A DNA stretch of 58,819 nucleotides, from UHGV virus genome UHGV-1363177. The stretch is one strand, 5' to 3'. A model generated the notes under the pieces. The model did no database searches. It saw only the letters and a list, made by a program, of their open reading frames with translations, and had not been told where the DNA came from. Origin of the DNA: a virus. Both the position numbers and the translations under genes were made by a program. Positions 9,630-58,735 of the stretch are shown piece by piece; the stretch's first letter is position 1; the number at the start of each line of letters is the position of its first letter.

Positions 9630-10367
9630 GTGAGAGTTAAAGATATTATTGAAAGAGTTCTTCTTCTGTACCACGATGAGAATTACTTGCGAATCAAGCA
9701 GCAGCAATACTTGCAACTGTTAGATGATGCTATCCTTCAGCTCATCCTCACTCGTCCTGACGCTCACGAGAAGCGAGATGTAATGAAGCTTTCTCCGGGT
9801 CCGCGTCAGCGTCTCCCGGAGGAAGCTTTCTCTTTGATAGATATTTATTCTAACAAGTTTAAGATTGCTGAGACTGATGAGTACACAGATGGTAAACCTG
9901 TGTTTCAGGTAGCTCGTAAAGACTTGGACTACTTTAGCAACTGGTACGACAACATTGAAGAACACACTCAGATTGACGAGTTTGCTTTTGATGTTCGGTC
10001 TCCTAAGCAGTTTTGGGTTAATCCCCCAGTAGCTGAGTCTGTTCCTATTTATGTTGAGATAGGTTATTCTTACAAGCATCCTCAGTACAGTCTTATGGTG
10101 GAAGATTATGAAGACATTCTTGAAATGGAATTGGAAATCTCTGATGAATTTCGGAATGCTATCATCAACTATCTCCTGTATCTTCTGTACAGCACCGATA
10201 GCACTTCTCAGTTTGACCGTACCATTGCTGATAAGTACCTTAATAATTTCTATCAGTTGCTTGGGATTGACGGTAAGTCTACTCTTGAAACCTATCCTCA
10301 CATTATTGAAAAGACTACTCAAGGGTTGAACCTTCATGGAGCTAACGTTGCTCCCACGGGGGCGTAG
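9630..10367 (+). CDS. Hypothetical virion protein (245 aa, GTG start), possibly head-tail connector
   Basis: Position in the morphogenesis module; acidic. Confidence 0.5.
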   Translation: MRVKDIIERVLLLYHDENYLRIKQQQYLQLLDDAILQLILTRPDAHEKRDVMKLSPGPRQRLPEEAFSLIDIYSNKFKIAETDEYTDGKPVFQVARKDLDYFSNWYDNIEEHTQIDEFAFDVRSPKQFWVNPPVAESVPIYVEIGYSYKHPQYSLMVEDYEDILEMELEISDEFRNAIINYLLYLLYSTDSTSQFDRTIADKYLNNFYQLLGIDGKSTLETYPHIIEKTTQGLNLHGANVAPTGA

Positions 10368-10369
10368 CC

Positions 10370-11353
10370 ATGAGTTACATTAACGCGACAATTGGTAAAG
10401 CAGTCATCGGTGAAACTGCTTGGAACGGTGGAGAAAGCCTTATAGTACCCCGTAAGTACAGGCAGAATCTCTACTATCCAGTACGAAATAAAGATGCTGT
10501 AGATTTCTTCTGCATCAATCAGAAACCTATCTGCTTTGTTAAACCCATCACTACACTCGACGGGATTCGGTACTCTAGTCTGTCTGGTTATATGATTAAC
10601 AGAGAATTTGTAGATTTTGTACTTGGTTGGTACGACCGAGTGCGTTATGAGACTATGAGTAACTTTGAATCTCGAACTATAGGTGCAGATACAACTATGG
10701 TTACTTGGGATAAATTTCATGAATATGTGCTACCTAGCGTGCAGGGTTGTCCTGTGTCTATGGTGAACAGTGCTATTCGTAGTGCTTGTATCGAGTTCTG
10801 TGAAAAGACTTTGCTGTGGAAACAGGACAGTATTACGAATGACCTGATTGAAGATTACGATTTGTATATCTTCGCTCCCCCGCCGAATGCTAAGGTAGTT
10901 ATGCCTTACCGTGTTTCTATTGATGGTAAGGAAGTACAACCTACTGATTTGCAAACTTTGGAGTCCTTTGCTCCTAATTGGAAAGACCTTAAGGATGAAT
11001 TTCCGAAGTATTACTTTATGGTAAGTGATAACACTATACGTCTTGTTGGTACTCCTACTAAGACATATAAGGATGCTCTTACTGCTGATGTAGCTCTTAA
11101 ACCTTCTCGTGACGCTAAACAGTGTCCTACGTTTATTTTTAACGATTGGGCTGAGACAATTGCTGCTGGTGCTCTTGCTAGGTTGCACGCTATGAAGGAT
11201 AAGGTCTGGGCTCTTCCTGAACTTGTTGGCCATTACACTAAAGCCTTTCGAGAAGGTATCTCTAGGGCACGTAGCAAGTCTGCTAAGTCTTGGCTGCAAG
11301 AATCTAAAACAATGCTCCCTGTTGGATTTTATAACGAAAAGAGGTATTATTAG
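10370..11353 (+). CDS. Hypothetical virion protein (327 aa)
   Basis: ATGA-overlap coupling with neighbours in the structural module. Confidence 0.55.
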   Translation: MSYINATIGKAVIGETAWNGGESLIVPRKYRQNLYYPVRNKDAVDFFCINQKPICFVKPITTLDGIRYSSLSGYMINREFVDFVLGWYDRVRYETMSNFESRTIGADTTMVTWDKFHEYVLPSVQGCPVSMVNSAIRSACIEFCEKTLLWKQDSITNDLIEDYDLYIFAPPPNAKVVMPYRVSIDGKEVQPTDLQTLESFAPNWKDLKDEFPKYYFMVSDNTIRLVGTPTKTYKDALTADVALKPSRDAKQCPTFIFNDWAETIAAGALARLHAMKDKVWALPELVGHYTKAFREGISRARSKSAKSWLQESKTMLPVGFYNEKRYY

Positions 11354-23638: not shown

Positions 23639-26600
23639 ATGGCTGGTTCCTTTACTGAATATTTGACTAATAGCTATGACCCCACTTCAGCGATGATAGG
23701 GACTTGGCTTGAACAGCAGGCTGTTAACCGTGCTATTGCTCGTGCTGAGATGGAAAAACTTTATCAGCAGAGACTTGCTGTCCAAGCTGCTCAGGCTAAA
23801 TCTAATCCGTATCTTGACTATCTTAGAGCACAGGCTGCTGCTGGTGTTACTCCCGGTACAGGCATGGCTCCTGTATATGGAGATGCCCCCACTCCTGCTG
23901 AAGCTCCCGGAGTTTGGGACCAATTCTTGAATCGTGCTGTTCCCCAGTCTCTTGCTGGTCTTGCTGGTGGTGTCGGTCTACTCGGTGACCTTATTGGTGC
24001 TGATTCTGTTCGAGACTGGGGTCTTGAAACCTCTCAATATTTCAACAACATCGCTGCACAAACTCCTCGAACTGTTGCTAGTCTCGAAGATGTTCTTTCT
24101 GGTAAAGGTGACTTCTCTACTTGGTTGAAAGAGAGTGCTATCGACCTTGCTCCTGACCTGATAGGTACCATTGCTACTGGTGGTACTGGTGGTCTTGCTG
24201 CCCGTGGCGGTGCTGCTCTTGCTGCTAGGGTTGCTGGAAAGGAACTGGCCGAGGGTGCTGCCAAGAAGGCTCTTCAGCGTGGTGCTCTTGCTGGTGCCTA
24301 CGGCTACGGAGTTGGAGCTGAAGGTGGTCAGGCTTACCTTACTGACGTAGAACGTCACGGTGTCGAAGGTACATCTCCTTGGATGGACCTCACCACAGGT
24401 GCTGTTGCTAGTGCTTTTGACCTTGCTGGTCCTGCCGGTGGTCTTGTTCTTAAAGCTCTTGGCCGTCCTGTCTCTAAGGCTGCTAGTGAAAAACTTCTCA
24501 GGACCCTTGCTTCTGAGAAGACTAGGACTGCTTTCCTTAAAGGTCTGGGTAAAGGTGCTCTTGCTGAGGGTGGTACTGAGTCCCTTCAGGAACTTACCCA
24601 TATTATCAATGAACAGCTCCAAAGTCCTGAGCTTGAATTTACTCCTCAGGATATCATGCGTCTGGTTGAATCTGGTCTTCTTGGTAGTATCTTTGGTGCT
24701 CCTATTGGTGCTGTCTCTAGGGTCCGCGCTAAGCAGCAGGCTCCTGCTCAGCTCAAGGCTCTTCTTGCCAATCAGTCTACTAGAGACACTTCTGATATAT
24801 CTGCTTCTCGATATGCTGAAGAACGCAAGGCTGCTCAGGACTATCTTGCTAATCTTCCTTCTAATCCTGCTCCTTTCGATAGCACTGTAGATTCTTTCTA
24901 CAATCGAACTCCTTCTGTGTCTAGTCCTATTGGGGAATACTATGCACAGAACTTTGATAAGCTCGATAACTTCTACAGTGACTTCGAGCAGAAGATGAAG
25001 ACTCCTTCTGAAGCTACTGCTGAAGCTGCTACGAGGCTGCGTACTTCTATGCGAAATGCTGCTGCACAGACTCAGCGACAGCTTAGTGAAGAAAGCACTA
25101 GACTGAATGCTGAAGCACAGACTCTTACAAATCAGCTTGCTAAACTGTCTAGCAAGCCTCCTCGTAACGTTACTCCTGAACAGCAGCGGGCATTGATTGC
25201 TGACCTTAACAAGCAGCTCGTTGCTAACAGGGCTGCTCAGGTCAGACTTCAGGAAGGTGCTAAAGAACGTGTTAGTTCTATTCAGCAGACTCTTGCTAAG
25301 GAAGAAAAGAAACTGGCTAACAAGCTGATGAATGACACTATCATCACGGACCAGTCTGGTCTGGCTCGTGATCCCTTCGGTGCCTCTCAGCTTATCCAGA
25401 TTCGTGGTGGAGCTAAAGCTCTGTTTGATAAGCAAGCTGCTGCTGTGCGAGAACGTCTCAATAAAGTTTCTGCTCAGCTTAGCCTTGCCGAACGTAGAAG
25501 TAAAAGCTCTCAAGCTACCCGCAGCATGGCACTTGCTAAGTTACTCGATGACCAGATTGCTGCTGGCAAGAAGGAACGTAATGAGCTTATCAAGCGTCTT
25601 CAGAAGATGAATGGTGCACTGGCTCGTATCGAAGCGGGTACTAACAATCTTGCTACTACTCAGTACACCGTTGACCAAGCTTACGTAGACTTGCAGGACA
25701 TCTACGACGGTGGTGTCATTGACACACCTACTCGTTCTGAAAAAGTTCTGTACGACACTCTGCGTAAAAGTCTTGATAATGTTGAAAAGAAAAGACGTGC
25801 TGAAGAACTGAAAGCTCGTACTGCTGCTCGTAGAGCTAAACGTCCTGATACTGTTACTGACTTTGACAAGACTCCAGATACCTTCTACAACAGAGAAGCT
25901 TCTGTAATTCCCAGTGCTACTCCTTTCGAAACTTCTGTTGATAGCTTCCTTTCTGGTACACCCTCTGTACAAGCTAATAACGTTCTTCAGTTAGCGCTTA
26001 CTGAAGGTCAAGCTAATCTTCCTGCTGTGTCTGAAGCTATCCCGATGGGTACTACGGACACCGGTGTTGATACCATTGCTCTTAACGCAGAGGGTGAGAC
26101 TATCCCTGTAGGTCCCGGTCGTGAACAGCTCATGCTTCCTGAAGGTGGTCAGGACTTTGACAGAACTCCTGACAGCTTCTACGGAACCACTCCCGAAGTC
26201 AAAGGCTTTGTTGAAAGTAATCCTGAAATTAAGAGTCCTATGATTTCTAGGTTCCCCGAAGCTGTGGATGCTTTCTACAACTACACGCCTGACATTGTGG
26301 AAGGTACGTGGCTGATGACTGATGCCACTACTAGACCTACGAAAGCTAAGTCTCCTAAGGAATCTGCTAAGCTTACTCCTAAAGACAAGAGCAATCTTGA
26401 TGTTACTAGAGCAATAGCTGATGAGGACTATAAGCAGGCTGTTGAAGATGTCCGACACGCTGCTATTAGACTTGAATCTACTAGCAAGAATGTTGATAAA
26501 AAGTCTTGGACTAAGAAACTTAATGACGGTCTTGTTAAAGCAAAGCAGGCTCTCAATAAGCTCCTTAATCTGAACATTGAACAGCTTCGTACTAATGCTG

Positions 26601-29600
26601 ACACCTCTAGTAAAAAGCTAGTTACTCAGGGTATTACACCGTCCCTTGAGATGCTTCCTCTGCTTTCTCACAACGTCACTATTGTTGACAGTGTGGATGT
26701 TCCCGAAGCTGCTGGCAGAACTGGTTACATTACTCGTGACCAGAAGATTTATCTTGTTGCAGATAACATTGTTGCTGAAGCTAAACAGCGTAAAAAGTCT
26801 GTCAAAGAAATAGCTACTCGTACTCTTGTGCATGAAGGTCTTGCTCACTATGGTCTTCGTGCCATTATGAGCCCTGCGGAACTCGGTAACTTCCTGCACG
26901 ATTTCAGGAGGAAGTTCGAGAATACTCCTACTTGGAAACGAGCTGCTGCTTCTATTCCTGAGTTTGACCAGCTCAATAAAAGACAGCAGGCTGAAGAAGT
27001 CTTTGCTAAACTTTCCGAACGTCACAAGATTAACAATCTTCTTGAGTCCCGCAATCTGGCAAAGGGTTATCTGAACAGTTTCATTAAGAAACTTGACAGC
27101 AAACTGGGACTGACTGACCTTACCCTTGATGATGTTAAGTCACTTCTTACTGTAGCTGCTGACAGACTGTCTATGGAATCTGCTGGTCAGGGTGCTGCTG
27201 ACATTGGAGCACATTATAGAACCATTCCTCAGACTGGTCTTGCTCGTTCTCTTGACCCCAACCTTGAATCTATGACCCGTGTTGAACGTGCTGAGGCTGA
27301 GGCGGCTCAGCGATTCCCTTTTTCTAACAGAGTTCAAGAGGTAGTAGCTAATAGAGAAAACACTGTCGAATACCTTCGAGAAGGTTTGATTGATAGCTTC
27401 CGTCCTGTTGAACGAATGATTCAAGCTGTTAAGGACTTGGGAAAGAAAGCTGATAACAAAGCTCGTGTCACTTGGGACACTAACGTCTACAAGCTTAGCC
27501 AGCATCTTTCCAGTCAGCAAGCTCTTGCACTTCAACAGTACAAGACCAACTTTGTTGACCCGCTTGTTGACCTTATCAGTGACACAGCCCTTCCGGGTGA
27601 AGACTACAGAGTAACCTTTGCTCGTGTATCTGACTATGTTGAAGCTGTTGCTGCCTATGAGCGTAACGACTTCGGAGCTAAGAAGGGTCTTGACTTCCCC
27701 CTCGTTCCGGGTAAGAAGGGTACATCTCTTCAGGAAAGTCAGGACTACTTCCGCAGTGTCATCAACAAGTACAGCTCTGAGTCCATGAACAAGGTAATGG
27801 ACCAACTCCAGAAGATTAACAATGAGCGTCTTCGTCTACTCGAAGAAAAGAAGATTATCCCGAAGGAAGTCATTGATAACTGGAGAGCTACGTACAAGTA
27901 CTACATGCCCTTCAAGAGTTGGGAGAATGTGGTACAGGAACTTGACCCCGCTTGGTACAACAGCAACACTCGTCGGTCTTTGTCTACTCCTAACGTTCAG
28001 AAGAAGATAATGAAGCGAGCTACTGGTCGTGAAGGTGAAGCTCAGAATCCTATTCTGCACTCCATCCTTCAGCTCTATGATGTGAGTAACCTTTCTCGTA
28101 CTGTTGACATTGGTCGTTCTCTTCTGAGACTTGTTCGTAACAATCCTGACGCTACTAGTATCTTCGAAATGGTAGAGTACAGAGATAAGAATGACAAAGA
28201 CTGGGGTAAACCTAGACTCACTACTGACCCTGAAACTGGTGAGCAAGTCTACGTTGTTGACCACGGTGCTATGAAACGTGTAGTCAACAAACAGACTGGT
28301 GACATCTCTCTTGTGCCTACTAAGCACACTGCCGAAGGTGAAATGAAAAACACTGTGGCAGTTATTGATGAGGATGGTACTGTACAGAGGGTGTTACTAC
28401 ATGACAGTGGTGTGGCTAGAGCTCTTAGAGCTGAGAACATTACTAGAGCTTCTGGTGTTGTTCGAGCTATTGGTGCTATCCAACACGAGCTTGGAAAGTA
28501 CATGACTTCTCGAAATCCTTTGTTCTGGATTACCAACCCCATTCGAGATACCGTGTCTGCTGCTATTAACATCAGCGCACTGAGTCAGGAACTTGAAGCC
28601 CTTGGCATTCCTAACTCCAAGGAAATCTCTCAGTCCATTCTGGTCAACGGTCTTGGTAAGACACTTACTAAGAACAGTGTTCGTAATGCTCTTATGTACT
28701 TCCGTAAGTACGGCACCTTCAATGATGTAACCATTAAGAATAAGGATGGTTCTACTAAGACTATCAAGTCTGGTCTCAGTGATGAGATGAAGATGTTCAT
28801 GAGTGACTACGAACAGTACTTGAACTACGGCGGACAGACTGAATACTTTGGAACGAACACTTATGAAACGTTAAGGAAAGACATCTTGTCTGCACTGAAG
28901 GACAAGAATCCCAAAACGTTTCTTGAAAAGCAACGTAGTAACATCAATAAAATGATGGAGTACATGGATGAGGTGAGTAACTCTCTCGAAAACATGACTC
29001 GTTACATTGCTTTCAAAGAAATCGTAGACCGCCTTAAGCCTTACGCTGAAGCCGGTAGGACTGCTGACGGTAGACCTTTCAGCTACGAAGAAATGTACAG
29101 TCGAGCTGCTAACATTGCCCTCAACCTTACTGTGAACTTCTCTCGAAAAGGTAGCTGGGCTCCTATTTTCAACTCTCTGTACATGTTCGCTAGTGCTAGC
29201 ATTGGTGGTAACGTTCGTATGCTGGAGACTATCTTCCGTAAGGACAGAAAAACTGGCAAGACTGACTGGAATCACGTAGCTAGATTCGCTATGTATCCCA
29301 TGCTGGGTTACGCTCTGCAAGCTATCATTGCTCGTGCTCTCATGGGTGACGATGATGATGGTGTCAGCTTCTATGATAAGATTCCTGAATACATCAAAGC
29401 TAGTAACATCATCCTTCCTAATCCTTTTAGTAAGGGTGACTATATCACTATCCCGATTACTTATGGTTTCGACATGTTCTGGAACCTTGCTATGAACATC
29501 TTCGAAGCTGGTCACAGTGCTGCTTACGGCAACCCCGGCCCCAACGCTACGGAAGCTGCTTCCTCTATCATTGGTAAGATGTTCAACAACTTCGCAACCA

Positions 29601-30310
29601 TTGGTGGTACTGATGAAGGCTGGACTGCTTTTGTTCCCAGCATTATTCGTCCTCTGTGGCAGTTGTCTATGAACAAGAACTTTGCAGGTAATCCTATTAT
29701 GCCTACCGGCAATGAGAACCTGCGAGGTGAAATCCCTGACCATGAAAAGTATTGGAGCACAGCCAACCCCAGTCTTGTGTGGCTGACTAAAGCTCTCTCT
29801 CCCATCATTGATGTCTCTCCCGAAAGTGTTGAACACATTGCTAACGCCTACCTCGGTGGCCTTGGACGTATTACCTTTGGTCTCCTTGGTAGAGTTGACG
29901 AATGGGCTCGCTATGGGTTAGACCACATTGATGTGGGTAAAGTGCCCGGTCTTAAAGTTCTGTACAAGACTACTCAGGACAGTGACACCAGTGCTATGTT
30001 CTCGAAGATGAGAACTAATGTACTCACTCAGATTAACGCAGTTGACACTGCTCGAACTGACATGAGACTCACTCCTGAAGAAAAGAGAGCTGTACTGATG
30101 GATAATCTCCAAGGCTACAGGCTCAAGCCTACCTTGAATAAACTTCAGCAACAGCTTAACCTGCTTCGAGAACAAGAGCGTAAGTTAATGAACAATCCCT
30201 CCATTTCTTCTGACACCAAGGCTACACGTCTTGACCAGATAAACCAACTCAAGCAACGTGCTATGAAGCAGTTCATTAAATCTGCTAATCAAGCTGGTGT
30301 GATTGGTTAA
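23639..30310 (+). CDS. Giant internal virion/ejection protein (2223 aa)
   Basis: 6.7-kb ORF at the end of the virion module (analogous position to T7 gp16). Ala/Gly-rich low-complexity N-terminus, long coiled-coil stretches, HEGLAH motif near residue 1060. No polymerase motifs recognised. Confidence 0.7.
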   Translation: MAGSFTEYLTNSYDPTSAMIGTWLEQQAVNRAIARAEMEKLYQQRLAVQAAQAKSNPYLDYLRAQAAAGVTPGTGMAPVYGDAPTPAEAPGVWDQFLNRAVPQSLAGLAGGVGLLGDLIGADSVRDWGLETSQYFNNIAAQTPRTVASLEDVLSGKGDFSTWLKESAIDLAPDLIGTIATGGTGGLAARGGAALAARVAGKELAEGAAKKALQRGALAGAYGYGVGAEGGQAYLTDVERHGVEGTSPWMDLTTGAVASAFDLAGPAGGLVLKALGRPVSKAASEKLLRTLASEKTRTAFLKGLGKGALAEGGTESLQELTHIINEQLQSPELEFTPQDIMRLVESGLLGSIFGAPIGAVSRVRAKQQAPAQLKALLANQSTRDTSDISASRYAEERKAAQDYLANLPSNPAPFDSTVDSFYNRTPSVSSPIGEYYAQNFDKLDNFYSDFEQKMKTPSEATAEAATRLRTSMRNAAAQTQRQLSEESTRLNAEAQTLTNQLAKLSSKPPRNVTPEQQRALIADLNKQLVANRAAQVRLQEGAKERVSSIQQTLAKEEKKLANKLMNDTIITDQSGLARDPFGASQLIQIRGGAKALFDKQAAAVRERLNKVSAQLSLAERRSKSSQATRSMALAKLLDDQIAAGKKERNELIKRLQKMNGALARIEAGTNNLATTQYTVDQAYVDLQDIYDGGVIDTPTRSEKVLYDTLRKSLDNVEKKRRAEELKARTAARRAKRPDTVTDFDKTPDTFYNREASVIPSATPFETSVDSFLSGTPSVQANNVLQLALTEGQANLPAVSEAIPMGTTDTGVDTIALNAEGETIPVGPGREQLMLPEGGQDFDRTPDSFYGTTPEVKGFVESNPEIKSPMISRFPEAVDAFYNYTPDIVEGTWLMTDATTRPTKAKSPKESAKLTPKDKSNLDVTRAIADEDYKQAVEDVRHAAIRLESTSKNVDKKSWTKKLNDGLVKAKQALNKLLNLNIEQLRTNADTSSKKLVTQGITPSLEMLPLLSHNVTIVDSVDVPEAAGRTGYITRDQKIYLVADNIVAEAKQRKKSVKEIATRTLVHEGLAHYGLRAIMSPAELGNFLHDFRRKFENTPTWKRAAASIPEFDQLNKRQQAEEVFAKLSERHKINNLLESRNLAKGYLNSFIKKLDSKLGLTDLTLDDVKSLLTVAADRLSMESAGQGAADIGAHYRTIPQTGLARSLDPNLESMTRVERAEAEAAQRFPFSNRVQEVVANRENTVEYLREGLIDSFRPVERMIQAVKDLGKKADNKARVTWDTNVYKLSQHLSSQQALALQQYKTNFVDPLVDLISDTALPGEDYRVTFARVSDYVEAVAAYERNDFGAKKGLDFPLVPGKKGTSLQESQDYFRSVINKYSSESMNKVMDQLQKINNERLRLLEEKKIIPKEVIDNWRATYKYYMPFKSWENVVQELDPAWYNSNTRRSLSTPNVQKKIMKRATGREGEAQNPILHSILQLYDVSNLSRTVDIGRSLLRLVRNNPDATSIFEMVEYRDKNDKDWGKPRLTTDPETGEQVYVVDHGAMKRVVNKQTGDISLVPTKHTAEGEMKNTVAVIDEDGTVQRVLLHDSGVARALRAENITRASGVVRAIGAIQHELGKYMTSRNPLFWITNPIRDTVSAAINISALSQELEALGIPNSKEISQSILVNGLGKTLTKNSVRNALMYFRKYGTFNDVTIKNKDGSTKTIKSGLSDEMKMFMSDYEQYLNYGGQTEYFGTNTYETLRKDILSALKDKNPKTFLEKQRSNINKMMEYMDEVSNSLENMTRYIAFKEIVDRLKPYAEAGRTADGRPFSYEEMYSRAANIALNLTVNFSRKGSWAPIFNSLYMFASASIGGNVRMLETIFRKDRKTGKTDWNHVARFAMYPMLGYALQAIIARALMGDDDDGVSFYDKIPEYIKASNIILPNPFSKGDYITIPITYGFDMFWNLAMNIFEAGHSAAYGNPGPNATEAASSIIGKMFNNFATIGGTDEGWTAFVPSIIRPLWQLSMNKNFAGNPIMPTGNENLRGEIPDHEKYWSTANPSLVWLTKALSPIIDVSPESVEHIANAYLGGLGRITFGLLGRVDEWARYGLDHIDVGKVPGLKVLYKTTQDSDTSAMFSKMRTNVLTQINAVDTARTDMRLTPEEKRAVLMDNLQGYRLKPTLNKLQQQLNLLREQERKLMNNPSISSDTKATRLDQINQLKQRAMKQFIKSANQAGVIG

Positions 30311-30779: not shown

Positions 30780-30805
30780 CTCACATACCTCAAAATCAAA
30801 CAGAA

Positions 30806-30845
30806 AAGCCCCTGTAAGCGATGAAACTTACAGGGGCTAACTGTT
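30806..30845 (+). terminator. Rho-independent terminator of the late operon (GCCCCTGTAAG...CTTACAGGGGC)
   Basis: 11-bp stem, A-tract before and T-rich after; 30 nt downstream of the stop at 30779. Confidence 0.7.
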
Positions 30846-30913
30846 TATATAGGTTACTTAAAAACGTTGCTTAGCATCAATCCTCGTGTGATTTTAGGGT
30901 ACATAAAACAATA

Positions 30914-30955
30914 AGGGCCATCTGCCTTGCTGTCGCCTTTAGCAAAGTAGATGGC
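30914..30955. terminator. Hairpin GGGCCATCT...AGATGGCCC in the convergence zone
   Basis: 9-bp stem with a large loop, between the convergent operons. Confidence 0.4.
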
Positions 30956-31159
30956 CCCTATTGGTTGGAGGGTTAGTGTTTCCTTTACGAAGTGCATGTC
31001 TGTTCTTTAAAAGGTACGCAAGCTCGAATGTACCCAAGAACCACTCCGCAAGTGGAAGGGGACAATAGGAAGAGAGGTAGTTATGTCCCTGTACCCAGTA
31101 CGATTACGCACTAAATATATAATACTTCGAGAAAGAGTGTCAAGTAAAATTTGTACTCC

Positions 31160-31215
31160 CTATAAAAAGAAAAGCCCCCAGATGGAGAAAGCAGTAAAAA
31201 ACATCTGAGGGCTTC
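31160..31215 (-). terminator. Rho-independent terminator for the leftward operon (AGCCCCCAGATG...CATCTGAGGGCT, T-tract on the minus strand)
   Basis: Stem followed on the minus strand by TTTTCTTTTT; about 35 nt downstream of the 31248 stop. Confidence 0.65.
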
Positions 31216-31247
31216 TATCATATAAGGAGGTGTTTGTTTTTGAAGCA

Positions 31248-37343: not shown

Positions 37344-38015
37344 TTACTCCTCAACTTCTCCAATACGATTCAGCAACCAGCCTCGCATGTACTTACGATA
37401 GTCACTGCGGCCATTAGTATTGAGACCAAGAGAGATATAGTGATTAACTTGGAGACCGTCAAGGGCACGACGCATACATTCAGTGTAGCGAGAATCATTC
37501 CCGATTTCCTGAAGTCTACGTCGAGTATTGGGACCAACAATACCATCAACATTGAGGTCAGCTCCAAACATATTCTTGTAGTTCAGAGCATTGCAAGCTC
37601 GCTGAATGAGCAGTGTAGTCTGCTTACGACCAAGGTTTACACTCTGGTCAAAAATTTCAAAAGCAAGAGGGAAGCTGGTAAGATTATCCAGCTCAAAAGG
37701 ATTCCAGAACTCCTGCTTGTACCAGCTACGAACATACTCATTGAGGTCTGCATTGTTTCGAATAGCAGACTTAAACTCAGATGTGTTAGCCCCGTGCAGG
37801 CGTTTCAGTTGGTCAACTATTTTCCAACCAGCCCAAGAAGGAAAGTTATTACGGGACACACCATACACTGTTTCACCACCAGTATCATTACAGTCGTTAC
37901 TGTAAGCACCTTCCAAGTCAAGAGTTTTCTTCAAAGCCTTATCAAAGGCACTATCACAAGATTCGTACATAGGTTTAAAATTTATTTCCACGTTAGAAGT
38001 TAGTGGGGTACCCAC
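37344..38015 (-). CDS. Endolysin: GH108-family lysozyme with a C-terminal peptidoglycan-binding domain
   Basis: N-terminal LDLEGAYSNDCNDTGGETVYGVS matches the GH108 catalytic motif (EGGYxNxxxDxGGxTxxG); C-terminal region resembles the PG_binding_3 domain usually attached to it. Confidence 0.75.
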   Translation of the reverse strand: MGTPLTSNVEINFKPMYESCDSAFDKALKKTLDLEGAYSNDCNDTGGETVYGVSRNNFPSWAGWKIVDQLKRLHGANTSEFKSAIRNNADLNEYVRSWYKQEFWNPFELDNLTSFPLAFEIFDQSVNLGRKQTTLLIQRACNALNYKNMFGADLNVDGIVGPNTRRRLQEIGNDSRYTECMRRALDGLQVNHYISLGLNTNGRSDYRKYMRGWLLNRIGEVEE

Positions 38016-38110
38016 CCAAAGTGCTTGCCCGCACCACCACGAACGAACAAGCAGATGGGTACCCTTCCCCGTAGGTCACACACACACGCTAAGGAGAAAC
38101 TTAGCTACAC

Positions 38111-43810: not shown

Positions 43811-43920
43811 AATTTAGTACCATCAAAGTAAGGCTAAAGTTTTCTTTAAGCTTCCTTTAAGGTAAATCATTTTAGTTTAATGTAAATACCTTTAAAGAAA
43901 CTTTAGAGAACTTTACTCAC

Positions 43921-43985
43921 ATTTAAGGAGGCCCCTTAAAGGGCCTCCTTAAATATTAACCTAATTCTCCTAATTCTTTCTTCTA
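43921..43985. promoter_or_regulatory. Second copy of the conserved hairpin (ATTTAAGGAGGCCC/GGGCCTCCTTAAAT, 14-bp stem) plus the box TTAACCTAATTCTCCTAATTCTTTCTT
   Basis: Same architecture as 595-660 with compensatory stem changes; in the 295-bp AT-rich intergenic region upstream of the helicase, which also holds TATATTATATTATATAATATATA and several CTTTAAAG palindromes. Confidence 0.6.
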
Positions 43986-44105
43986 TAGCACTTTAAAGGT
44001 TTACTTTAATATATATTATATTATATAATATATACATCAAAGTAATTCTTTAAAGTACCATAAAGGAAGGAGCTCAGAAACTTGGACTATTCTCGAACTC
44101 CTTCC

Positions 44106-44366
44106 TCATGCCGCACTTGCCAACAACGTCTCGCTCGGCAACCGTAAGTTTGGCTGCTCAAACGGAGGGTCCCTACCCGGACTTCGCACAACACCGAACT
44201 GCTCCGCCAGTTCTTTGTCACTCTTGGTACTGAGCCAAGAGATGTACCACTGCATCATGGGAGGCCACTTGCCAAACGCTCGTTTGTATTCCCTGCACTT
44301 ACTGTCAGGGTACAGGGGAGCCAGACGATTAACCGACGCGACGGAGAAGTTGTGAATCTTAGCCAT
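44106..44366 (-). CDS. Hypothetical protein (86 aa), GC-rich codon usage
   Basis: First of five compositionally distinct small ORFs between helicase and primase; 9-bp hairpin over its stop. Confidence 0.45.
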   Translation of the reverse strand: MAKIHNFSVASVNRLAPLYPDSKCREYKRAFGKWPPMMQWYISWLSTKSDKELAEQFGVVRSPGRDPPFEQPNLRLPSETLLASAA

Positions 44367-48796: not shown

Positions 48797-49012
48797 TTAA
48801 TTTTGTTCGTTGTAAACTTCCCAGTCCTCAGCCATCATGCCATAGGCAGTAAGGTTTTTGTGAAGCACCTTCTCGAAAGGTGCAAACCTAAACACAAATT
48901 CGTAGCAACCAAACTGGTTTATGATGAGTTGCATGTAGTCCCCATCACACCAGCAGGCACGACGAACTTTCTTGCCTTCACGAAGGAAGGGTAAGATGTC
49001 TTCGAACTTCAT
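48797..49012 (-). CDS. Small hypothetical protein (71 aa)
   Basis: ORF. Confidence 0.4.
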   Translation of the reverse strand: MKFEDILPFLREGKKVRRACWCDGDYMQLIINQFGCYEFVFRFAPFEKVLHKNLTAYGMMAEDWEVYNEQN

Positions 49013-49200: not shown

Positions 49201-49261
49201 AGTGACCTCCAGTAGAGAGGGGCCTCACCCCTCAAGGAAGTAAGGCCCCTAGTGTTGAAGG

Positions 49262-49504
49262 TTACTTGGACTGGTCGTCATCAGGCTTGCTGCTCTTCTT
49301 ACGAAGAGCCAGCACACTGACGATACCCAGAGCGGCACCCACACCGGCAACGGCTTTGGGATTGGCCTTGGCCCAGTCGATGGCCTTGGTGGCCTTGTCC
49401 TTCATCCAGTCCACGATGACGTGCAGCTTGGGGTTGGGGCATTCGATGGTTTCGGACATGACTTCAGCTTCCTTCACTTCGACTTCCTTCTTGACATCAG
49501 ACAT
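49262..49504 (-). CDS. Small protein (80 aa) with a C-terminal TM anchor
   Basis: ATG at 49504 preceded by AAGGAG; C-terminal AVAGVGAALGIVSVLAL plus a basic tail. Confidence 0.45.
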   Translation of the reverse strand: MSDVKKEVEVKEAEVMSETIECPNPKLHVIVDWMKDKATKAIDWAKANPKAVAGVGAALGIVSVLALRKKSSKPDDDQSK

Positions 49505-50145: not shown

Positions 50146-50879
50146 AGCTTCATGAAAGTTTTGCGAATCACATCATTTATTATGGTGGTTCTTCAACATC
50201 TGCACTAGCCTTCCACATGTTGTCCTCCCTAAACATTGATTGTAAAACCTTCAAGACTAAGATATAGGAGTCCTTCAAGTACCTTCCTTTGCATTCACTA
50301 GCATCCAGTACTTGGCTCATCTTGCTTGTCAGTTTTAATTTCGTACCCATTACTTTACTTGAAGCTCTTCCACCGAAGGAAGCAATCACTTCAGGAGTCT
50401 CACCTTTGGTACTTGCTTGTAATGTGCTATGTTGTTGCCAGTGTTTCGCAGATTTCACAGATACTTCACACAGTATTTTTCAAAGGTCTGGCATTTGAAG
50501 CCCCTTGCCAATCAGCTATATTGGGGGACTGAAAGGTCGGACAACTAGGATGTCACACTCTAGCGTAAGTGTGTCCCTGCACTTGGCATTCCATGATTTA
50601 TTTCATTCATGTCAGTTGTCACGTGCTTCTTACCTTTGAATTTTTCGACAGTGTTCAGCCTATGTCGTAGCCCTGACCAGCTTACTAGGTGTCTTCTGTG
50701 TTCATCGTAAGTTACTTTCCACTTGCACAGTTACAAGTATCCCTCTTGCCGTTAGAAGATGGTAGCATTTCCAACCTACCGTAGACTCGTGTCCCACCGA
50801 ACTCAGTCGGACATACAAGCATCTTCCTTCGTGGGCAGGAAGTAAACATACCTCCTGCCCAATTGGAAGTTACTTGTTG

Positions 50880-51641
50880 TTACTTGCGCTTGCCCTTGTT
50901 GTACCCGTTGTTACGGGCAGGGAACAGGGGAGGCGGAGTCACCTTGGCTTTCTTGGCCTGCTGTTCCTTCAGCTTGTCCAGCTCGGACAGGTCAGCGTCT
51001 TCACTGTCAAGCAGCATGGCAGGATTGATGCCTTCCTTCTTGATGGCACCGAGCATCCAGTTCAGACCCATGCGAACCTTGTTGTCGATGTCCAACGCAC
51101 GGATACCTTCCTGCGTGGCCATGCGGATAAGGATACGGGACAGAACGATGCACAGCTTGGCGCTGGTCTCGTCGTCTTGTTCCTTGAACCGTTCAGCCTG
51201 CATGTGCAGGAAGGCGCTGGTCGGGAAGGACACCACGGCGAGGGTGACCAGACGGCCAGTGTTGGTGAAGAAGAAGTAGTTGACCAGTTTGCTGCTGTCC
51301 TTGTACGGACCGAAGAAGTTTTCACACAGCAGCCAGAACTGGTCTTTCAGGATACCAGCCAGCCGGTCTTCAGCTTCCTGAATGCCCACGTTCTTCACAG
51401 TGTTGCCGAAGTTTCGCATGGCCGGGCTTTCCACAGCAGCCATCACAGTGCTTTTCATACCGGAACTGGCGGAGTACATAAACCCTTTCACCTTTTCCAT
51501 GAAAGAGGGAACGGGGACCTGCTCTTCTTCGGCCATCCTTTTAAGGTCTTCCTCCATTTTGGCACGGAGGCTGGGGTCCAGGTTGTCCATCGTGATGGTT
51601 TCAGGGTCGATGACGTTGGGGTTGACTTGGGTTTCCGACAT
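50880..51641 (-). CDS. Hypothetical early protein (253 aa)
   Basis: ORF in the GC-rich block; strong periodicity and host-like codons. Confidence 0.6.
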   Translation of the reverse strand: MSETQVNPNVIDPETITMDNLDPSLRAKMEEDLKRMAEEEQVPVPSFMEKVKGFMYSASSGMKSTVMAAVESPAMRNFGNTVKNVGIQEAEDRLAGILKDQFWLLCENFFGPYKDSSKLVNYFFFTNTGRLVTLAVVSFPTSAFLHMQAERFKEQDDETSAKLCIVLSRILIRMATQEGIRALDIDNKVRMGLNWMLGAIKKEGINPAMLLDSEDADLSELDKLKEQQAKKAKVTPPPLFPARNNGYNKGKRK

Positions 51642-55239: not shown

Positions 55240-55422
55240 CTAGCCATCAATGTCATCCCGTTTGTTAGTGAAGCCGACCTTGACACCGATGTGCTTGAGA
55301 CCGTGCTCGGCAAGCGTAGCCACAGCATCAGCCACATCAATGGCTTCTGGGAGGTCTACAAGATTTCCCCAGTAGCGAGTGTCCCCAATCTCAACGTACA
55401 CCCACATCTTACCGTCATTCAT
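55240..55422 (-). CDS. Small acidic protein (60 aa)
   Basis: ORF preceded by SD ACGGAGG. Confidence 0.4.
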   Translation of the reverse strand: MNDGKMWVYVEIGDTRYWGNLVDLPEAIDVADAVATLAEHGLKHIGVKVGFTNKRDDIDG

Positions 55423-55439
55423 TGGTATTGAACCTCCGT

Positions 55440-55507
55440 TAAATTCAAGAGACCTACAAGGGCCACCACCTCAGAAGAAGTGACGGCCCCTATGATGTCT
55501 TGAAAGT
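55440..55507. repeat. Structured intercistronic repeat R1 (hairpin GGGCC...GGCCC plus conserved box TATGATGTCTTGAAAGT)
   Basis: About 75% identical to R2 at 55666-55729, with compensatory changes that keep the stem. Confidence 0.6.
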
Positions 55508-55648
55508 TTATGCGTGGCGTTCTTCACACCAGTGATTGTAGTCAAGGACTTCCTGCATCCTGACAAAGAACCACGCCGGGTAATCCTGCCAGTTATCACC
55601 ATTGCCAAGTTTATGCATGAATCTGCGAGCAACACGAAGTCTCCACAT
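55508..55648 (-). CDS. Small hypothetical protein (46 aa), not in the supplied ORF list
   Basis: ATG at 55648 with SD GGAGGTG 6 nt upstream; fills the space between repeats R1 and R2. Confidence 0.4.
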   Translation of the reverse strand: MWRLRVARRFMHKLGNGDNWQDYPAWFFVRMQEVLDYNHWCEERHA

Positions 55649-55665
55649 GTTACACCTCCAGTGTA

Positions 55666-55729
55666 ATTTCAAGAATCAATGAGGCCCACCACCTCCATGA
55701 AGTGATGGGCCTTATGATGCTTGAAGTGA
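55666..55729. repeat. Structured intercistronic repeat R2 (hairpin AGGCCCA...TGGGCCT plus box TATGATGCTTGAAGTG)
   Basis: Paralogue of R1; lies between the stop of 55730..56425 and the SD of the 46-aa ORF. Confidence 0.6.
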
Positions 55730-56425
55730 CTAGGCGGCACGCTTCTCAACCTTAGCCAGCGTATTCAGGATGGCCTGAATCAGCAAATCCAGCGTGCTGT
55801 CCCCCGGCACTTCGTACTGGGACAGCATGTGGAAAATCTGCTTCATCTTCGGGGACAGCACCACAGCTTGCGGATTTTCCGGGCGTTCCTTCACCAGCGT
55901 AGCGGGCACGGCGTCCTTAATGTCAAGGCCAGCATTCTCCGCGTCCTTCTGGAGCTTGCTGAACTTCTTCTTCAGATCGTCCAAGGTCATCGCAGGCTTT
56001 TCCTTCTTTTCCTTTTCGACCTTGGTTTCAGCATCCCAGCGCACACCAGCCATGTAGCCACGGCCAGCAGCCACCAGATATTCCGCGAACTCCACAGGCA
56101 GGGGGCCACCGTTTTCAGGCTTAGTAGTAGCGTGGTTCAGCTTCTTGAGAATGCCCAGGGCCTTGCTCTGGGCGTACCTCAGCTTACCTCCATCATAAGT
56201 AAACGGCACCGACTGACTGGACATGTACGTCCCAGCAACCTTCCGCATGGCACCGTCAAGGATGTCCAAGACCTTGTTCAAGGCCGTGGCGTTGGCGTTG
56301 GCGATGCCGAACTCCATCCCAGCCGTCAAGAGTTCCTGCACAGCGTTGACGAACTCGGACTTGGTGCGAGCCAGCACTACCAGCTTGGACTCAAAGTCCT
56401 GCTCGGACATGGTAAAGTTAATCAT
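55730..56425 (-). CDS. Hypothetical early protein (231 aa), first gene of the leftward early operon
   Basis: SD GGAGGA 7 nt before the ATG; GC-rich codon usage. Confidence 0.6.
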   Translation of the reverse strand: MINFTMSEQDFESKLVVLARTKSEFVNAVQELLTAGMEFGIANANATALNKVLDILDGAMRKVAGTYMSSQSVPFTYDGGKLRYAQSKALGILKKLNHATTKPENGGPLPVEFAEYLVAAGRGYMAGVRWDAETKVEKEKKEKPAMTLDDLKKKFSKLQKDAENAGLDIKDAVPATLVKERPENPQAVVLSPKMKQIFHMLSQYEVPGDSTLDLLIQAILNTLAKVEKRAA

Positions 56426-56502
56426 ACGTCATTCCTCCGTGTGACATTGTTGATAAAAGACCTACCTTACAAGTGTTCTAAAGAGCGATTGTCTTTAGTC
56501 CA

Positions 56503-56541
56503 ACAAAAAAGGCCACGAACCTTTTTACAGTTCGTGGCCTC
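56503..56541 (-). terminator. Rho-independent terminator (GGCCACGAAC...GTTCGTGGCC, T6 run on the minus strand)
   Basis: 10-bp stem flanked by A6 on the plus strand (U6 on the minus strand); insulates the early operon from upstream transcription. Confidence 0.7.
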
Positions 56542-57607
56542 AATGTTGTACCAAACGGCACATGTTCCAAAGTATTCAGTCGTTCGCCTTTAGCTCCAGC
56601 CTAGCCGTTACGTTTCCTCGCGACTACCTTGACCATAGCAAAGGCTATATTTTCATCGGAAGAGCCTTTATTCCACTACGTCACCTCGTGGCCTGATTCG
56701 CTTCACTTGTTTTGTACCGGCAAGCCTTTGGAAAACTTGCGCCAAGTGTCAGGGGTATCGCCCTTCCGGCAGTATATACTTTGGACGCTTGTCCTTTTCC
56801 GTCTTTATTGGAGTTACCTTGCGCGTAATTACACAAGGTAAGACCTCACAGCACACGCACACAAGCCACAAGGGCTGGGCAGGCTGCGGAAAGCATACTC
56901 ATATCGTCTTTGCCCGCTTTTCTCTACGGGGGCGTGCTGTTCACACATCAGTACACGCTTGTCCATCAACGCGTAGGGAATGCCCTACTTGGCTTTGAAT
57001 GGGGAGCCTTGCCCCGTTGGATTGACCTTGCCAGCTTTCCGCTAGATTGTCAATTCTTTTTTTCAAAGTTCCGAAAAATTTTTCGGCCCTTTGAAAGCGC
57101 CTTGTGAGGGAAGACCCTCACTAGGCAGATTCAGACTAGGGCATTTTGCTGTACCTTGTCAATCTTTTTTTGAGATTTGACAAACAGGCTTGGCACTATG
57201 CCTGCCCTCTCGTGAGGGCTGCTAGCAGGCTTTCAGGGAATGCCCCGAACGCAAGCCCAGACTGCCGGAATGCTGGCATGATGTCAATGACTTTTCCGAA
57301 AAATTTTTATATTTTTATCTTCAATAATTTCAGGTACTTATGCATATGCCTAGAATCTTTTTTAAAAGTTCAATGATTCCAGCTAGTTACGCTTTCCCTG
57401 TCGTGCTTATATGTAACGCGTGCGCGCATACATGTGCGGGCATATGAGTGAAAATGTGCTACATGCCTCAAAATGAGCCACAAAGGGCCTTAGAATCGCT
57501 GAAAGGGCTTTTTCCATATCATTGCCTAGCTTTTCCCTTTTCGTGGCTTATAAGCCCCATTCTGTCCCATTTTGGAGCATGTGGGGCTTTTCATAGGCAA
57601 CAAAAAA
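56542..57607. promoter_or_regulatory. About 1.07-kb ORF-poor regulatory/origin-like region with palindromes and iterated motifs
   Basis: Contains the CCGAAAAATTTTTCGG palindrome (57071-57086) and TTGTCAAT(T/C)CTTTTTTT repeated at about 57040 and 57160, the second embedded in an inverted repeat. Also GGGAATGCCC repeats, ACGCGTGCGCGCATACATGTGCGGGCATATG, and multiple short hairpins. Only spurious ORFs of 76 aa or less. Confidence 0.5.
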
Positions 57608-57645
57608 GCCCCCTTGCGATTGCTCACGAGGGGGCTTTGTTTTGC
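57608..57645. terminator. Bidirectional rho-independent terminator (GCCCCCTTGCG...CGAGGGGGC with T-tracts on both strands)
   Basis: Stem flanked by A6 upstream and TTTGTTTT downstream on the plus strand; 12 nt from the stop of 57658..58317. Confidence 0.75.
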
Positions 57646-57657
57646 TAACTGCTTGTT

Positions 57658-58317: not shown

Positions 58318-58429
58318 CGTCTGTACCTCTCTACAGTTGTCAAAGTTACATTGTTTTTGACTATACTATCCTTTGCCGATTGCGCCCACAAAAGACATCT
58401 TCATGGGCGCTACGGTAAAAGATAAAGAC

Positions 58430-58597
58430 TTAATCTACCATTTTCATAATAGCGTCAAAGTAGTAGCCACGTTTGCTGCATATTTCATCGATACGCTTGT
58501 TAAGTTCATCATTCCAGCAATAAAAGGTGACAGTTGTTTTAGCATTGTTTGCAATTATAGTCACAAGCATTTCGTAGCGGTCAAAAGTGCGTTCCAT
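58430..58597 (-). CDS. Small hypothetical protein (55 aa), not in the supplied ORF list
   Basis: ATG with SD AAGGA upstream; preferred over the overlapping plus-strand 90-aa ORF, which lacks an SD. Confidence 0.35.
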   Translation of the reverse strand: MERTFDRYEMLVTIIANNAKTTVTFYCWNDELNKRIDEICSKRGYYFDAIMKMVD

Positions 58598-58682: not shown

Positions 58683-58735
58683 CCTTTTTGAAAAATTTTT
58701 CTTCAATTATTTCAAGTACTTGTGAATGACTGTTA
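58683..58735. promoter_or_regulatory. Repeat of the GAAAAATTTTT...TCTTCAAT(T/A)ATTTCA(A/G)GTACTT box also present at 57296-57345
   Basis: 35-nt near-identical motif in two intergenic positions about 1.4 kb apart. Confidence 0.45.

Follow-up and report, generated by a model that had tools for sequence, protein, structure and literature searches.

The early region of bacteriophage T7 carries repeated, related hairpins of ~50–60 nt on the sense strand between its genes (R0.3, R0.5, R1, R1.1, R1.3, and others). Each has an upper and a lower stem with a weakly paired middle, and tandem host-type promoters are followed first by one such hairpin and then by the first gene. RNase III cleaves the R1.1 site, described as a 60-nt hairpin with an internal loop of 4/5 nt, both in vivo and in vitro (PMC6121014). 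A different arrangement is found in the T4-type PeSL (Arbiol et al. 2010), which reads stop codon, stem-loop, Shine-Dalgarno, start codon, flanks variable orphan genes, and upon deletion leaves a chimeric element (PMC2839356). A strong sigma-70 promoter is the defining feature of a PeSL, whose similarly placed stem-loops have been shown to terminate transcription (PMC2839356).

Here we analyze two hairpins, R1 and R2, in the 58,819-nt virus genome UHGV-1363177, the whole of which is called the window below. The hairpins belong to a real, structurally constrained RNA family. The family and the phage lineage that carries it are new, whereas the kind of element is already known. The T7 early RNase III sites come closest to the family in function and layout, and the PeSL cassette does so in evolutionary behavior.

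Results

Genomic setting of the hairpins

From ~32 kb to the right end of the window every plausible gene lies on the minus strand. The DNA polymerase and portal proteins are ~30% identical to those of HMO-2011/CRP/ICP2-type phages, and the phage is a distant relative of HMO-2011/CRP-type phages, unrelated to T7. Megablast gave no match of the region to 50,697 phage records and no match of 24.8 kb to complete E. coli genomes, so these searches point to no cultured relative and give no clue to the host. No phage RNA polymerase was found with Pfam or PHROGs, and thus transcription is likely carried out by the host. No tRNAs were found. The features of the early region, in the order in which the minus strand is read, are as follows.

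57282–57287, 57157–57162, and 57048–57053, minus strand: three tandem putative promoter sites with spacings of 125 and 109 nt, each made up of an A-rich tract and a perfect TTGACA
56494–56555, minus strand: type E hairpin
55730–56425, minus strand: 231-aa gene, its stop codon (TAG) 4 nt ahead of R2
55668–55725, minus strand: R2 hairpin (type A), between the 231-aa gene and the 46-aa ORF
55655–55659, minus strand: GGAGG Shine-Dalgarno of the 46-aa ORF, 8 nt past R2 and 6 nt from the ATG (direct reading)
55508–55648, minus strand: 46-aa ORF between R2 and R1, its stop codon (TAA) 3 nt ahead of R1
55444–55504, minus strand: R1 hairpin (type B), between the 46-aa ORF and the 60-aa gene
55240–55422, minus strand: 60-aa gene, its GGAGG (55433–55437) beginning 6 nt past R1 and lying 10 nt from the ATG

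The preliminary description had placed R1 and R2 between a stop codon and the next Shine-Dalgarno on the minus strand, on either side of a 46-aa ORF. Both repeats are present at those places, with their coordinates refined to the ones given above, and the sequence confirms the arrangement: on the minus strand each reads stop codon, 3–4 nt, hairpin, 6–8 nt, GGAGG, ATG. The 46-aa ORF is conserved in relatives (89–96% amino-acid identity). A family search (Pfam, PHROGs) gave no functional assignment for the 231-aa protein, the neighboring small proteins had no Pfam or PHROGs family match, and no transposase or recombinase was found near R1 or R2.

The three TTGACA sites were not called by a consensus promoter scan because their possible –10 regions are weak (CAGTCT, TAGTCT, and CAAGGT). 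They lie upstream of a ~500-nt stretch (about 56560–57040) without a convincing ORF, which is followed by the type E hairpin. Their tandem layout recalls the T7 A1–A3 promoters. Nearby, plus-strand AT-rich direct repeats of 42 nt (62–79% identity) occur in the non-coding stretch (57304–57345 and 57353–57394) and near the right end (58686–58727), and the exact 15-mer TTCCGAAAAATTTTT is found twice, at 57069–57083 and 57294–57308; these repeats and the 15-mer could be part of promoters or of an origin.

Two genes elsewhere in the window deserve mention. A plus-strand 2223-aa ORF (23639–30310) in the structural block carries an LPD38 ‘large polyvalent protein’ domain and also resembles two giant PHROG families without known function in their C-terminal parts; no polymerase domain was seen in the protein, which is possibly an ejected multi-domain protein. 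A minus-strand 71-aa gene (about 48797–49012), equivalent to 10300–10515 of the related contig L093 and 18299–18514 of L079, encodes a protein with a precomputed Pfam match to Tad2-like (PF11195), whose members are anti-Thoeris proteins. The match suggests an anti-defense gene in the early or middle region.

R1 and R2 fold as three-tier hairpins on the minus strand

Both hairpins are built in three tiers: an outer stem of 6–7 bp, UUCAAG(A)/(U)CUUGAA, a middle stem of 3–4 bp, AUC(A)/(U)GAU or GGU, and a GC-rich upper stem of 13–17 bp capped by a loop of 3–4 nt. R1 spans 61 nt with 26 bp, of which 6 are G.U, and consists of the outer stem UUCAAGA/UCUUGAA, a 3-bp middle stem, a 17-bp upper stem, and a UUCU loop. 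R2 spans 58 nt with 23 bp and consists of the outer stem UUCAAG/CUUGAA, the middle stem AUCA/UGAU, a small internal loop (UAA/UCAU), an upper stem of 13–14 bp, and a 3-nt loop. On the minus strand the RNA of R1 folds at –36.3 kcal/mol (z –6.08) and that of R2 at –34.0 kcal/mol (z –6.42), and none of 200 dinucleotide shuffles folded as well as either. The plus-strand RNAs fold more weakly (–22.4 and –32.3 kcal/mol). The pattern TTCAAG-N40–60-CTTGAA occurs three times against 0.28 expected.

All of the sequence blocks that had been reported, namely the AA(A/T)TTCAAGA leader, the TATGATG(T)CTTGAA trailer, and the GGGCC/GGCCC and AGGCCCA/TGGGCCT stems, are present. The CCACCTC segment that had been taken for the loop is in fact stem: on the minus strand it reads GAGGUGG and pairs with CCAUCACUUC/CCGUCACUUC through G.U pairs, leaving a true loop of only 3–4 nt. 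The misreading arose because the hairpin was viewed on the plus strand, where those G.U pairs are A.C mismatches. The covariation claimed between R1 and R2 comes down to one double-sided pair (G-C to C-G) plus an A-U to G.U change; the real evidence for covariation comes from the relatives described below.

We checked whether the hairpins sequester the Shine-Dalgarno that follows them and saw no sign of it. That the 3’ arm (GGAGGUGGU) is Shine-Dalgarno-like and the 5’ arm anti-Shine-Dalgarno-like was dropped as an explanation, as it fails in types C–E. A scan gave no minus-strand promoter-like site in or beside R1 or R2. By direct reading, the TTGAAA or TTGAAT at the 3’ end of the hairpins lacks a usable –10, and a start there would fall at or after the ATG. 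Hairpin promoters of the N4 type were also considered and rejected: the stems of N4 promoters are short (5–7 bp), and the 2223-aa virion protein has the LPD38 domain and no polymerase. At gathering thresholds Rfam had no match in the window. At E ≤ 1 only chance-level matches were obtained, of which two pre-miRNA families fell on the hairpins, far under their cut-offs (minus strand, 55664–55727 and 56489–56562; mir-8356, 25.4 bits against a cut-off of 70, and mir-BART15). These two matches show only the general shape of substrates of RNase III-family enzymes.

Covariation in a lineage-restricted family

To define the family a covariance model was built from types B and C only, because MAFFT shifts the outer stem of type A by one base, and the remaining types were aligned by the model. 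With filters off, the model recovered from the window R1 (85.8 bits, E 3e-19), R2 (55.3 bits, E 2e-11), and the minus-strand hairpin at 56494–56555 (30.8 bits, E 3e-5), and it also gave weak matches on other long hairpins of the window. Thus the window holds three members rather than the single pair first described. The third member, type E, lies ~70 nt upstream of the 231-aa gene and has the three-tier architecture with other stem sequences; it carries the U-run GGCCUUUUUUGUU within the element and so looks like an intrinsic terminator. An outlying match has the same score as type E.

31156–31229, minus strand: hairpin between a long A-tract and a U-tract, terminator-like (30.8 bits, E 3e-5; –34.1 kcal/mol, z –5.5)

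It lies in a region rich in terminator-like hairpins, near the convergence of the plus- and minus-strand ORF blocks, and has the family architecture, although its membership is uncertain.

Homologues of the 231-aa protein that are 88–91% identical were found in human and pig gut assemblies, and their contigs were fetched, whereas no homologue loci were found in IMG/VR. A pattern scan of JGI metagenomes gave 67 matches, two of them real (L165 and L190). Each related contig carries one to four hairpin copies. The covariance-model search that had been suggested for further copies yielded, besides the third window member, five sequence types (A–E) in the related contigs. The family helix is 23–26 bp over 58–63 nt, a near-constant length, with fold energies of –33 to –37 kcal/mol. 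It is irregular, with small loops and bulges at the stem junctions (columns 15/66 of the alignment are unpaired in 12 of the 18 copies).

Because the automatic pair count mixed sense and antisense matches, pairs were recounted on sense copies only. In the 18 distinct sense copies 93.8% of cells are standard pairs, and both sides have changed in 16 of 27 pairs, values that come from an alignment fitted to the model and from copies that represent only about five independent lineages. As a control the 3’ partner was slid by one or two columns, upon which pairing fell to 32–49%, and in the mixed-strand alignment none of 500 shuffles reached the observed score. A recent local duplication without structural constraint is rejected by the double-sided changes. 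The sense alignment contains 65 G.U cells and only 10 A.C cells (pair-table tally), and the sense RNA was more stable than the antisense by 3.6–13.9 kcal/mol in all six types tested. This excess of G.U over A.C, together with the stronger sense folds, indicates that the object under selection is the coding-strand RNA and not a DNA cruciform.

Type D is instructive in that it keeps the B-type flanks CAUAGGGGCC...GGUGGCCCUUGUUG around the upper stem, whereas its outer stem (UUACUAG/CUGGUAA) and apical stem (GCCUUAGU/ACUAAGGU) are wholly different and both still pair. More generally, the terminal inverted repeats are perfect in types A–C, whereas the termini of types D and E differ yet pair. Since any U-tract comes before the 3’ half of the outer stem, that half can have no part in termination; its upkeep points to a post-transcriptional need for a long helix. 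The hairpins are also better conserved than their flanks. R2 is 100% identical between the window and L079, where the surrounding alignment is 87% identical.

Outside the lineage no true copies were detected. Two motif patterns gave only chance matches in IMG/VR, mostly in glycine-rich tail-fiber coding sequence. Among single genomes of 185,579 species there were 33 matches to the core motif, none of which fits the family model at E ≤ 0.01; note that this pattern was the core common to types A–C, and thus very divergent copies could escape it. The family is confined to this phage lineage. REP/BIME elements, which had been proposed as one identity of the repeats, are likewise repeated palindromic units between cistrons that can stabilize the upstream mRNA. 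However, REPs occur in hundreds of copies over host chromosomes, whereas here there are three to four per phage genome and none in the 185,579 species genomes or IMG/VR, and the hairpins are therefore not a REP-like host element.

Resemblance to the T7 RNase III sites

Seven T7 sites, taken at coordinates that we presume to be those of Dunn and Studier (1983), folded as the expected hairpins of 50–55 nt and –18 to –23 kcal/mol and share CUCAAGG(U/C)C...GGCCUUUAUGAUU. At the presumed coordinates R6.5 and R13 gave no hairpin fold and were left out of the T7 model. The T7 sequence CAAGG(U/C)C...GGCCUUUAUGAU is common to type C, which reads CAAGGCC...GGCCUUUAUUGAU or, more fully, AUCAAGGCC...GGCCUUUAUUGAU. 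A covariance model of the seven sites was searched against 109 kb of this phage and its relatives, and the top 11 matches were all family members, the best being type C in L079 (23.8 bits, E 0.0056). In the window the T7 model matched 56494–56554 at E 0.24 and 55444–55503 at E 0.98, and R2 was unreported at E ≤ 10. The match is marginal, a directional resemblance and not proof of membership or of common descent.

The likeness goes beyond the model scores. As in T7, related sense hairpins are repeated between early genes, an upper and a lower stem enclose a weakly paired middle, and a copy precedes the first gene downstream of tandem promoters (putative here); moreover, the local sequence around the upper stem has the shared form CAAGGNC...GGCCUUUAU.GAU. 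By analogy the whole layout of tandem promoters, leader hairpin, and hairpin-separated cistrons appears to mirror the T7 early region. There are also clear differences. The T7 upper stem is 9–11 bp as compared with 13–17 bp here, the T7 hairpins fold at –18 to –23 kcal/mol as compared with –33 to –37 kcal/mol, and this family has a smaller internal loop. This phage is unrelated to T7, no RNA polymerase gene was found in it, and cleavage is only predicted. The earlier suggestion of T7-like RNase III sites is partly supported: it fits the sense strand, the placement between stop codon and Shine-Dalgarno in a run of small early genes, and the irregular covarying helix of 23–26 bp, and family members lead the matches of the T7 model at marginal scores.

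Gain and loss of gene cassettes at the hairpins

The preliminary description overlooked that the repeats are breakpoints of gene-cassette gain and loss. In the gene orders below bracketed letters are hairpin types and numbers are gene lengths in aa.

Window: [E] 231 [A] 46 [B] 60
L079: [E] 74 [D] 231 [A] 46 [C] 97 [B] 178 60
L082: [E] 231 [A] 99 46 [B] 181 46b 60
L080 and L081: [E] 231 [A/B] ... 60

When the window was compared with each relative by blastn, the breakpoints fell at the 3’ ends of hairpins. L080 and L081 lack the 46-aa gene and have a single, chimeric hairpin in its place. The sequence of this hairpin is that of type A as far as GGGCCTCATTG and that of type B from GTCTCTTGAATTTAACGGAGG on, as a crossover between an R2-like and an R1-like hairpin would be expected to produce. 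In this chimera the U.G pair of the middle stem has become C-G and the helix is kept. The 97-aa and 99-aa genes of the relatives are paralogues of 35% identity in adjacent hairpin-bounded slots (L079 10996–11289 and L082 1186–1485). L090 (about 1715–2485) apparently has both paralogues, and its 99-aa-type gene seems to be disrupted, a picture that agrees with cassettes being duplicated and decaying.

The PeSLs also are stem-loops set between a stop codon and a Shine-Dalgarno and repeated in a variable region of small orphan genes, and in both systems deletion of the flanked gene leaves one chimeric element. In contrast to PeSLs the hairpins of this family are longer and are kept as RNA structure by covariation. 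R1 and R2 also lack the sigma-70 promoter that a PeSL must have and are therefore not PeSLs.

Discussion

We give an even chance to the reading that the hairpins act as signals for RNase III-type processing and for stability of a polycistronic early mRNA and also serve as crossover joints in the DNA. The early mRNA would be read from the minus strand, starting at the three tandem TTGACA promoter-like sites (~57.05–57.29 kb), and would contain, in order, the 56494–56555 hairpin, the 231-aa gene followed by R2, the 46-aa gene followed by R1, and the 60-aa gene, and would run on beyond it. Each hairpin would present an irregular helix of ~2.5 turns after a stop codon and before the next Shine-Dalgarno. 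We infer that host RNase III would recognize this 23–26 bp helix and cut where pairing is weak, on the 3’ side of the GC-rich upper stem, which by analogy with T7 would place the cuts near 55675–55682 in R2 and 55452–55456 in R1. Cutting would leave the upstream cistron with a protective hairpin at its end and give the downstream cistron a start at which the ribosome-binding site is free, as happens to the early mRNA of T7. A possible weakness of this scheme is that the longer and more regular upper stems could give double-strand cuts or no special single-site processing. At the DNA level, repeats of ~60 bp would provide homologous crossover points at which small early-gene cassettes could be deleted, inserted, and swapped.

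A bolder version, which we offer tentatively as a possibility short of probable, is that the hairpins are the joints of a promoter-less cassette system based on an RNA element, in which each small early gene carries its own processing hairpin and the RNA and recombination functions are co-selected, neither being a by-product of the other. The early genes would then likely be host-takeover or anti-defense ORFans. If this were true the lineage could quickly swap, duplicate, and lose early genes with the expression of inserts guaranteed, and recombination at the hairpins would possibly proceed through excised mini-circles as proposed for the T4 PeSLs.

The attenuator half of the earlier reading is less likely, although it is the main rival and a live one since the 56494–56555 copy has a canonical U-run. 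According to this reading the hairpins are leaky intrinsic terminators whose GC-rich stem and U-rich flank stop a fraction of host polymerases and so grade expression, a decrease possibly relieved by a phage antiterminator. With intrinsic (Rho-independent) terminators of extended A-tract/U-tract pairing the hairpins share a GC-rich stem that is flanked by U-rich sequence on its 3’ side and by A-rich sequence on its 5’ side. Type E looks fully canonical (GGCC followed by UUUUUUGUU), UUUAUU or UUUGUU follows the stem in types C and D and some B copies, and the family model also matches the U-run hairpin at 31156–31229. Similarly placed T4-type PeSL stem-loops do terminate (PMC2839356). Given these U-runs and U-rich flanks the family may derive from terminators or still act as such. 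However, when scanned for terminators with a U-run of ~5 or more U in 8, type E passes, R2 passes only a lenient scan with the tail CATTGATTCT, and R1 is unflagged; indeed the U-tracts of R1 (CUUGUAGGU) and R2 (UCAUUGAUU) are poor, and both hairpins lie inside an operon directly ahead of ribosome-binding sites. The strongest argument against a purely terminating role is the outer stem, which runs past the U-rich segment and is maintained by full compensatory replacement, although its 3’ half would be untranscribed at termination. Moreover, the T7 RNase III sites also have GGCCUUUAUGAUU yet lie within the early transcription unit, upstream of the terminator TE. Somewhat more doubtful is that the hairpins are passive stabilizers or insulators that block 3’–5’ exonucleases as REP hairpins do, without any part for RNase III, and might also give each ribosome-binding site structural independence from the cistron before it. 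Their great stability, their position directly past stop codons with the next Shine-Dalgarno unpaired, and the occurrence of similar long hairpins, conserved in relatives, in many other minus-strand intergenic gaps would all agree with such a role. An exonuclease barrier, however, needs neither 23–26 bp nor a conserved outer stem, as 8–12 GC-rich pairs suffice, and the resemblance to the T7 consensus would be left unexplained.

The two remaining readings are less probable still. That the hairpins are DNA-level elements only, either recombination joints or a miniature mobile element with TTCAAG...CTTGAA terminal inverted repeats, seems improbable to us. This reading is favored by the chimeric hairpin, by the cassette breakpoints at the hairpins, by gene content that varies from copy to copy, and by the perfect terminal repeats of types A–C, but the G.U to A.C ratio and the weaker antisense folds mean that pairing is selected on one strand only, and the diverged termini of types D and E retain pairing without retaining the repeat sequence. 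Direct reading of the flanks showed no target-site duplications, nor was a nearby transposase or recombinase found, or any copy outside the lineage or at unrelated genomic sites. We consider it very improbable that the hairpins are binding sites at cistron junctions for an RNA-binding regulator encoded by phage or host, for example a repressor of translation or an endoribonuclease dedicated to them. Although the blocks flanking the upper stem (AUAGGGGCC, GGUGG, and GGCC[C/U]UU) are conserved across types beyond the needs of pairing, no candidate protein was identified, the neighboring genes lack family matches, and the apical stem and loop sequences vary between types.

The processing reading gives an uncultured lineage of human and pig gut phages a testable model of early expression by tandem promoters, a leader hairpin, and hairpin-separated cistrons, and it adds a covariation-supported RNA family that is absent from Rfam. 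The T7 solution of cutting an early transcript at repeated hairpins may thus recur in an unrelated phage group. In metagenomic phage genomes such hairpins may serve as landmarks for fast-evolving host-takeover or anti-defense genes.

Six other long two-tier hairpins of –31 to –42 kcal/mol, with sequences unrelated to R1 and R2, lie in intergenic gaps of the minus strand.

50811–50880, minus strand: long two-tier hairpin
49201–49270, minus strand: long two-tier hairpin
43901–43970, minus strand: long two-tier hairpin
44051–44120, minus strand: long two-tier hairpin
38001–38070, minus strand: long two-tier hairpin
58361–58430, minus strand: long two-tier hairpin

Three of these were compared with the relatives. 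The hairpins at 50811–50880 and 49201–49270 are conserved in L079, L080, and L165, the former also in L082, whereas that at 58361–58430 was recovered whole only in L165. The 49201–49270 copy is 96–97% identical as compared with about 82–90% for its flanks. The whole leftward transcription unit seems to be punctuated by long hairpins.

The window also contains canonical-looking intrinsic terminators at 57601–57650, 30781–30850, and 30900–30969. The 57601–57650 terminator lies past a 219-aa gene and reads GCCCCCUCG...CGAGGGGGCUUUUUUGUU. The other two are found near the convergence of the plus-strand late genes with the minus-strand genes. The hairpin at 30900–30969 has AUAGGGGCCAUC...GAUGGCCCUUAUUG in common with type B and folds equally well on both strands, and this terminator is probably bidirectional.
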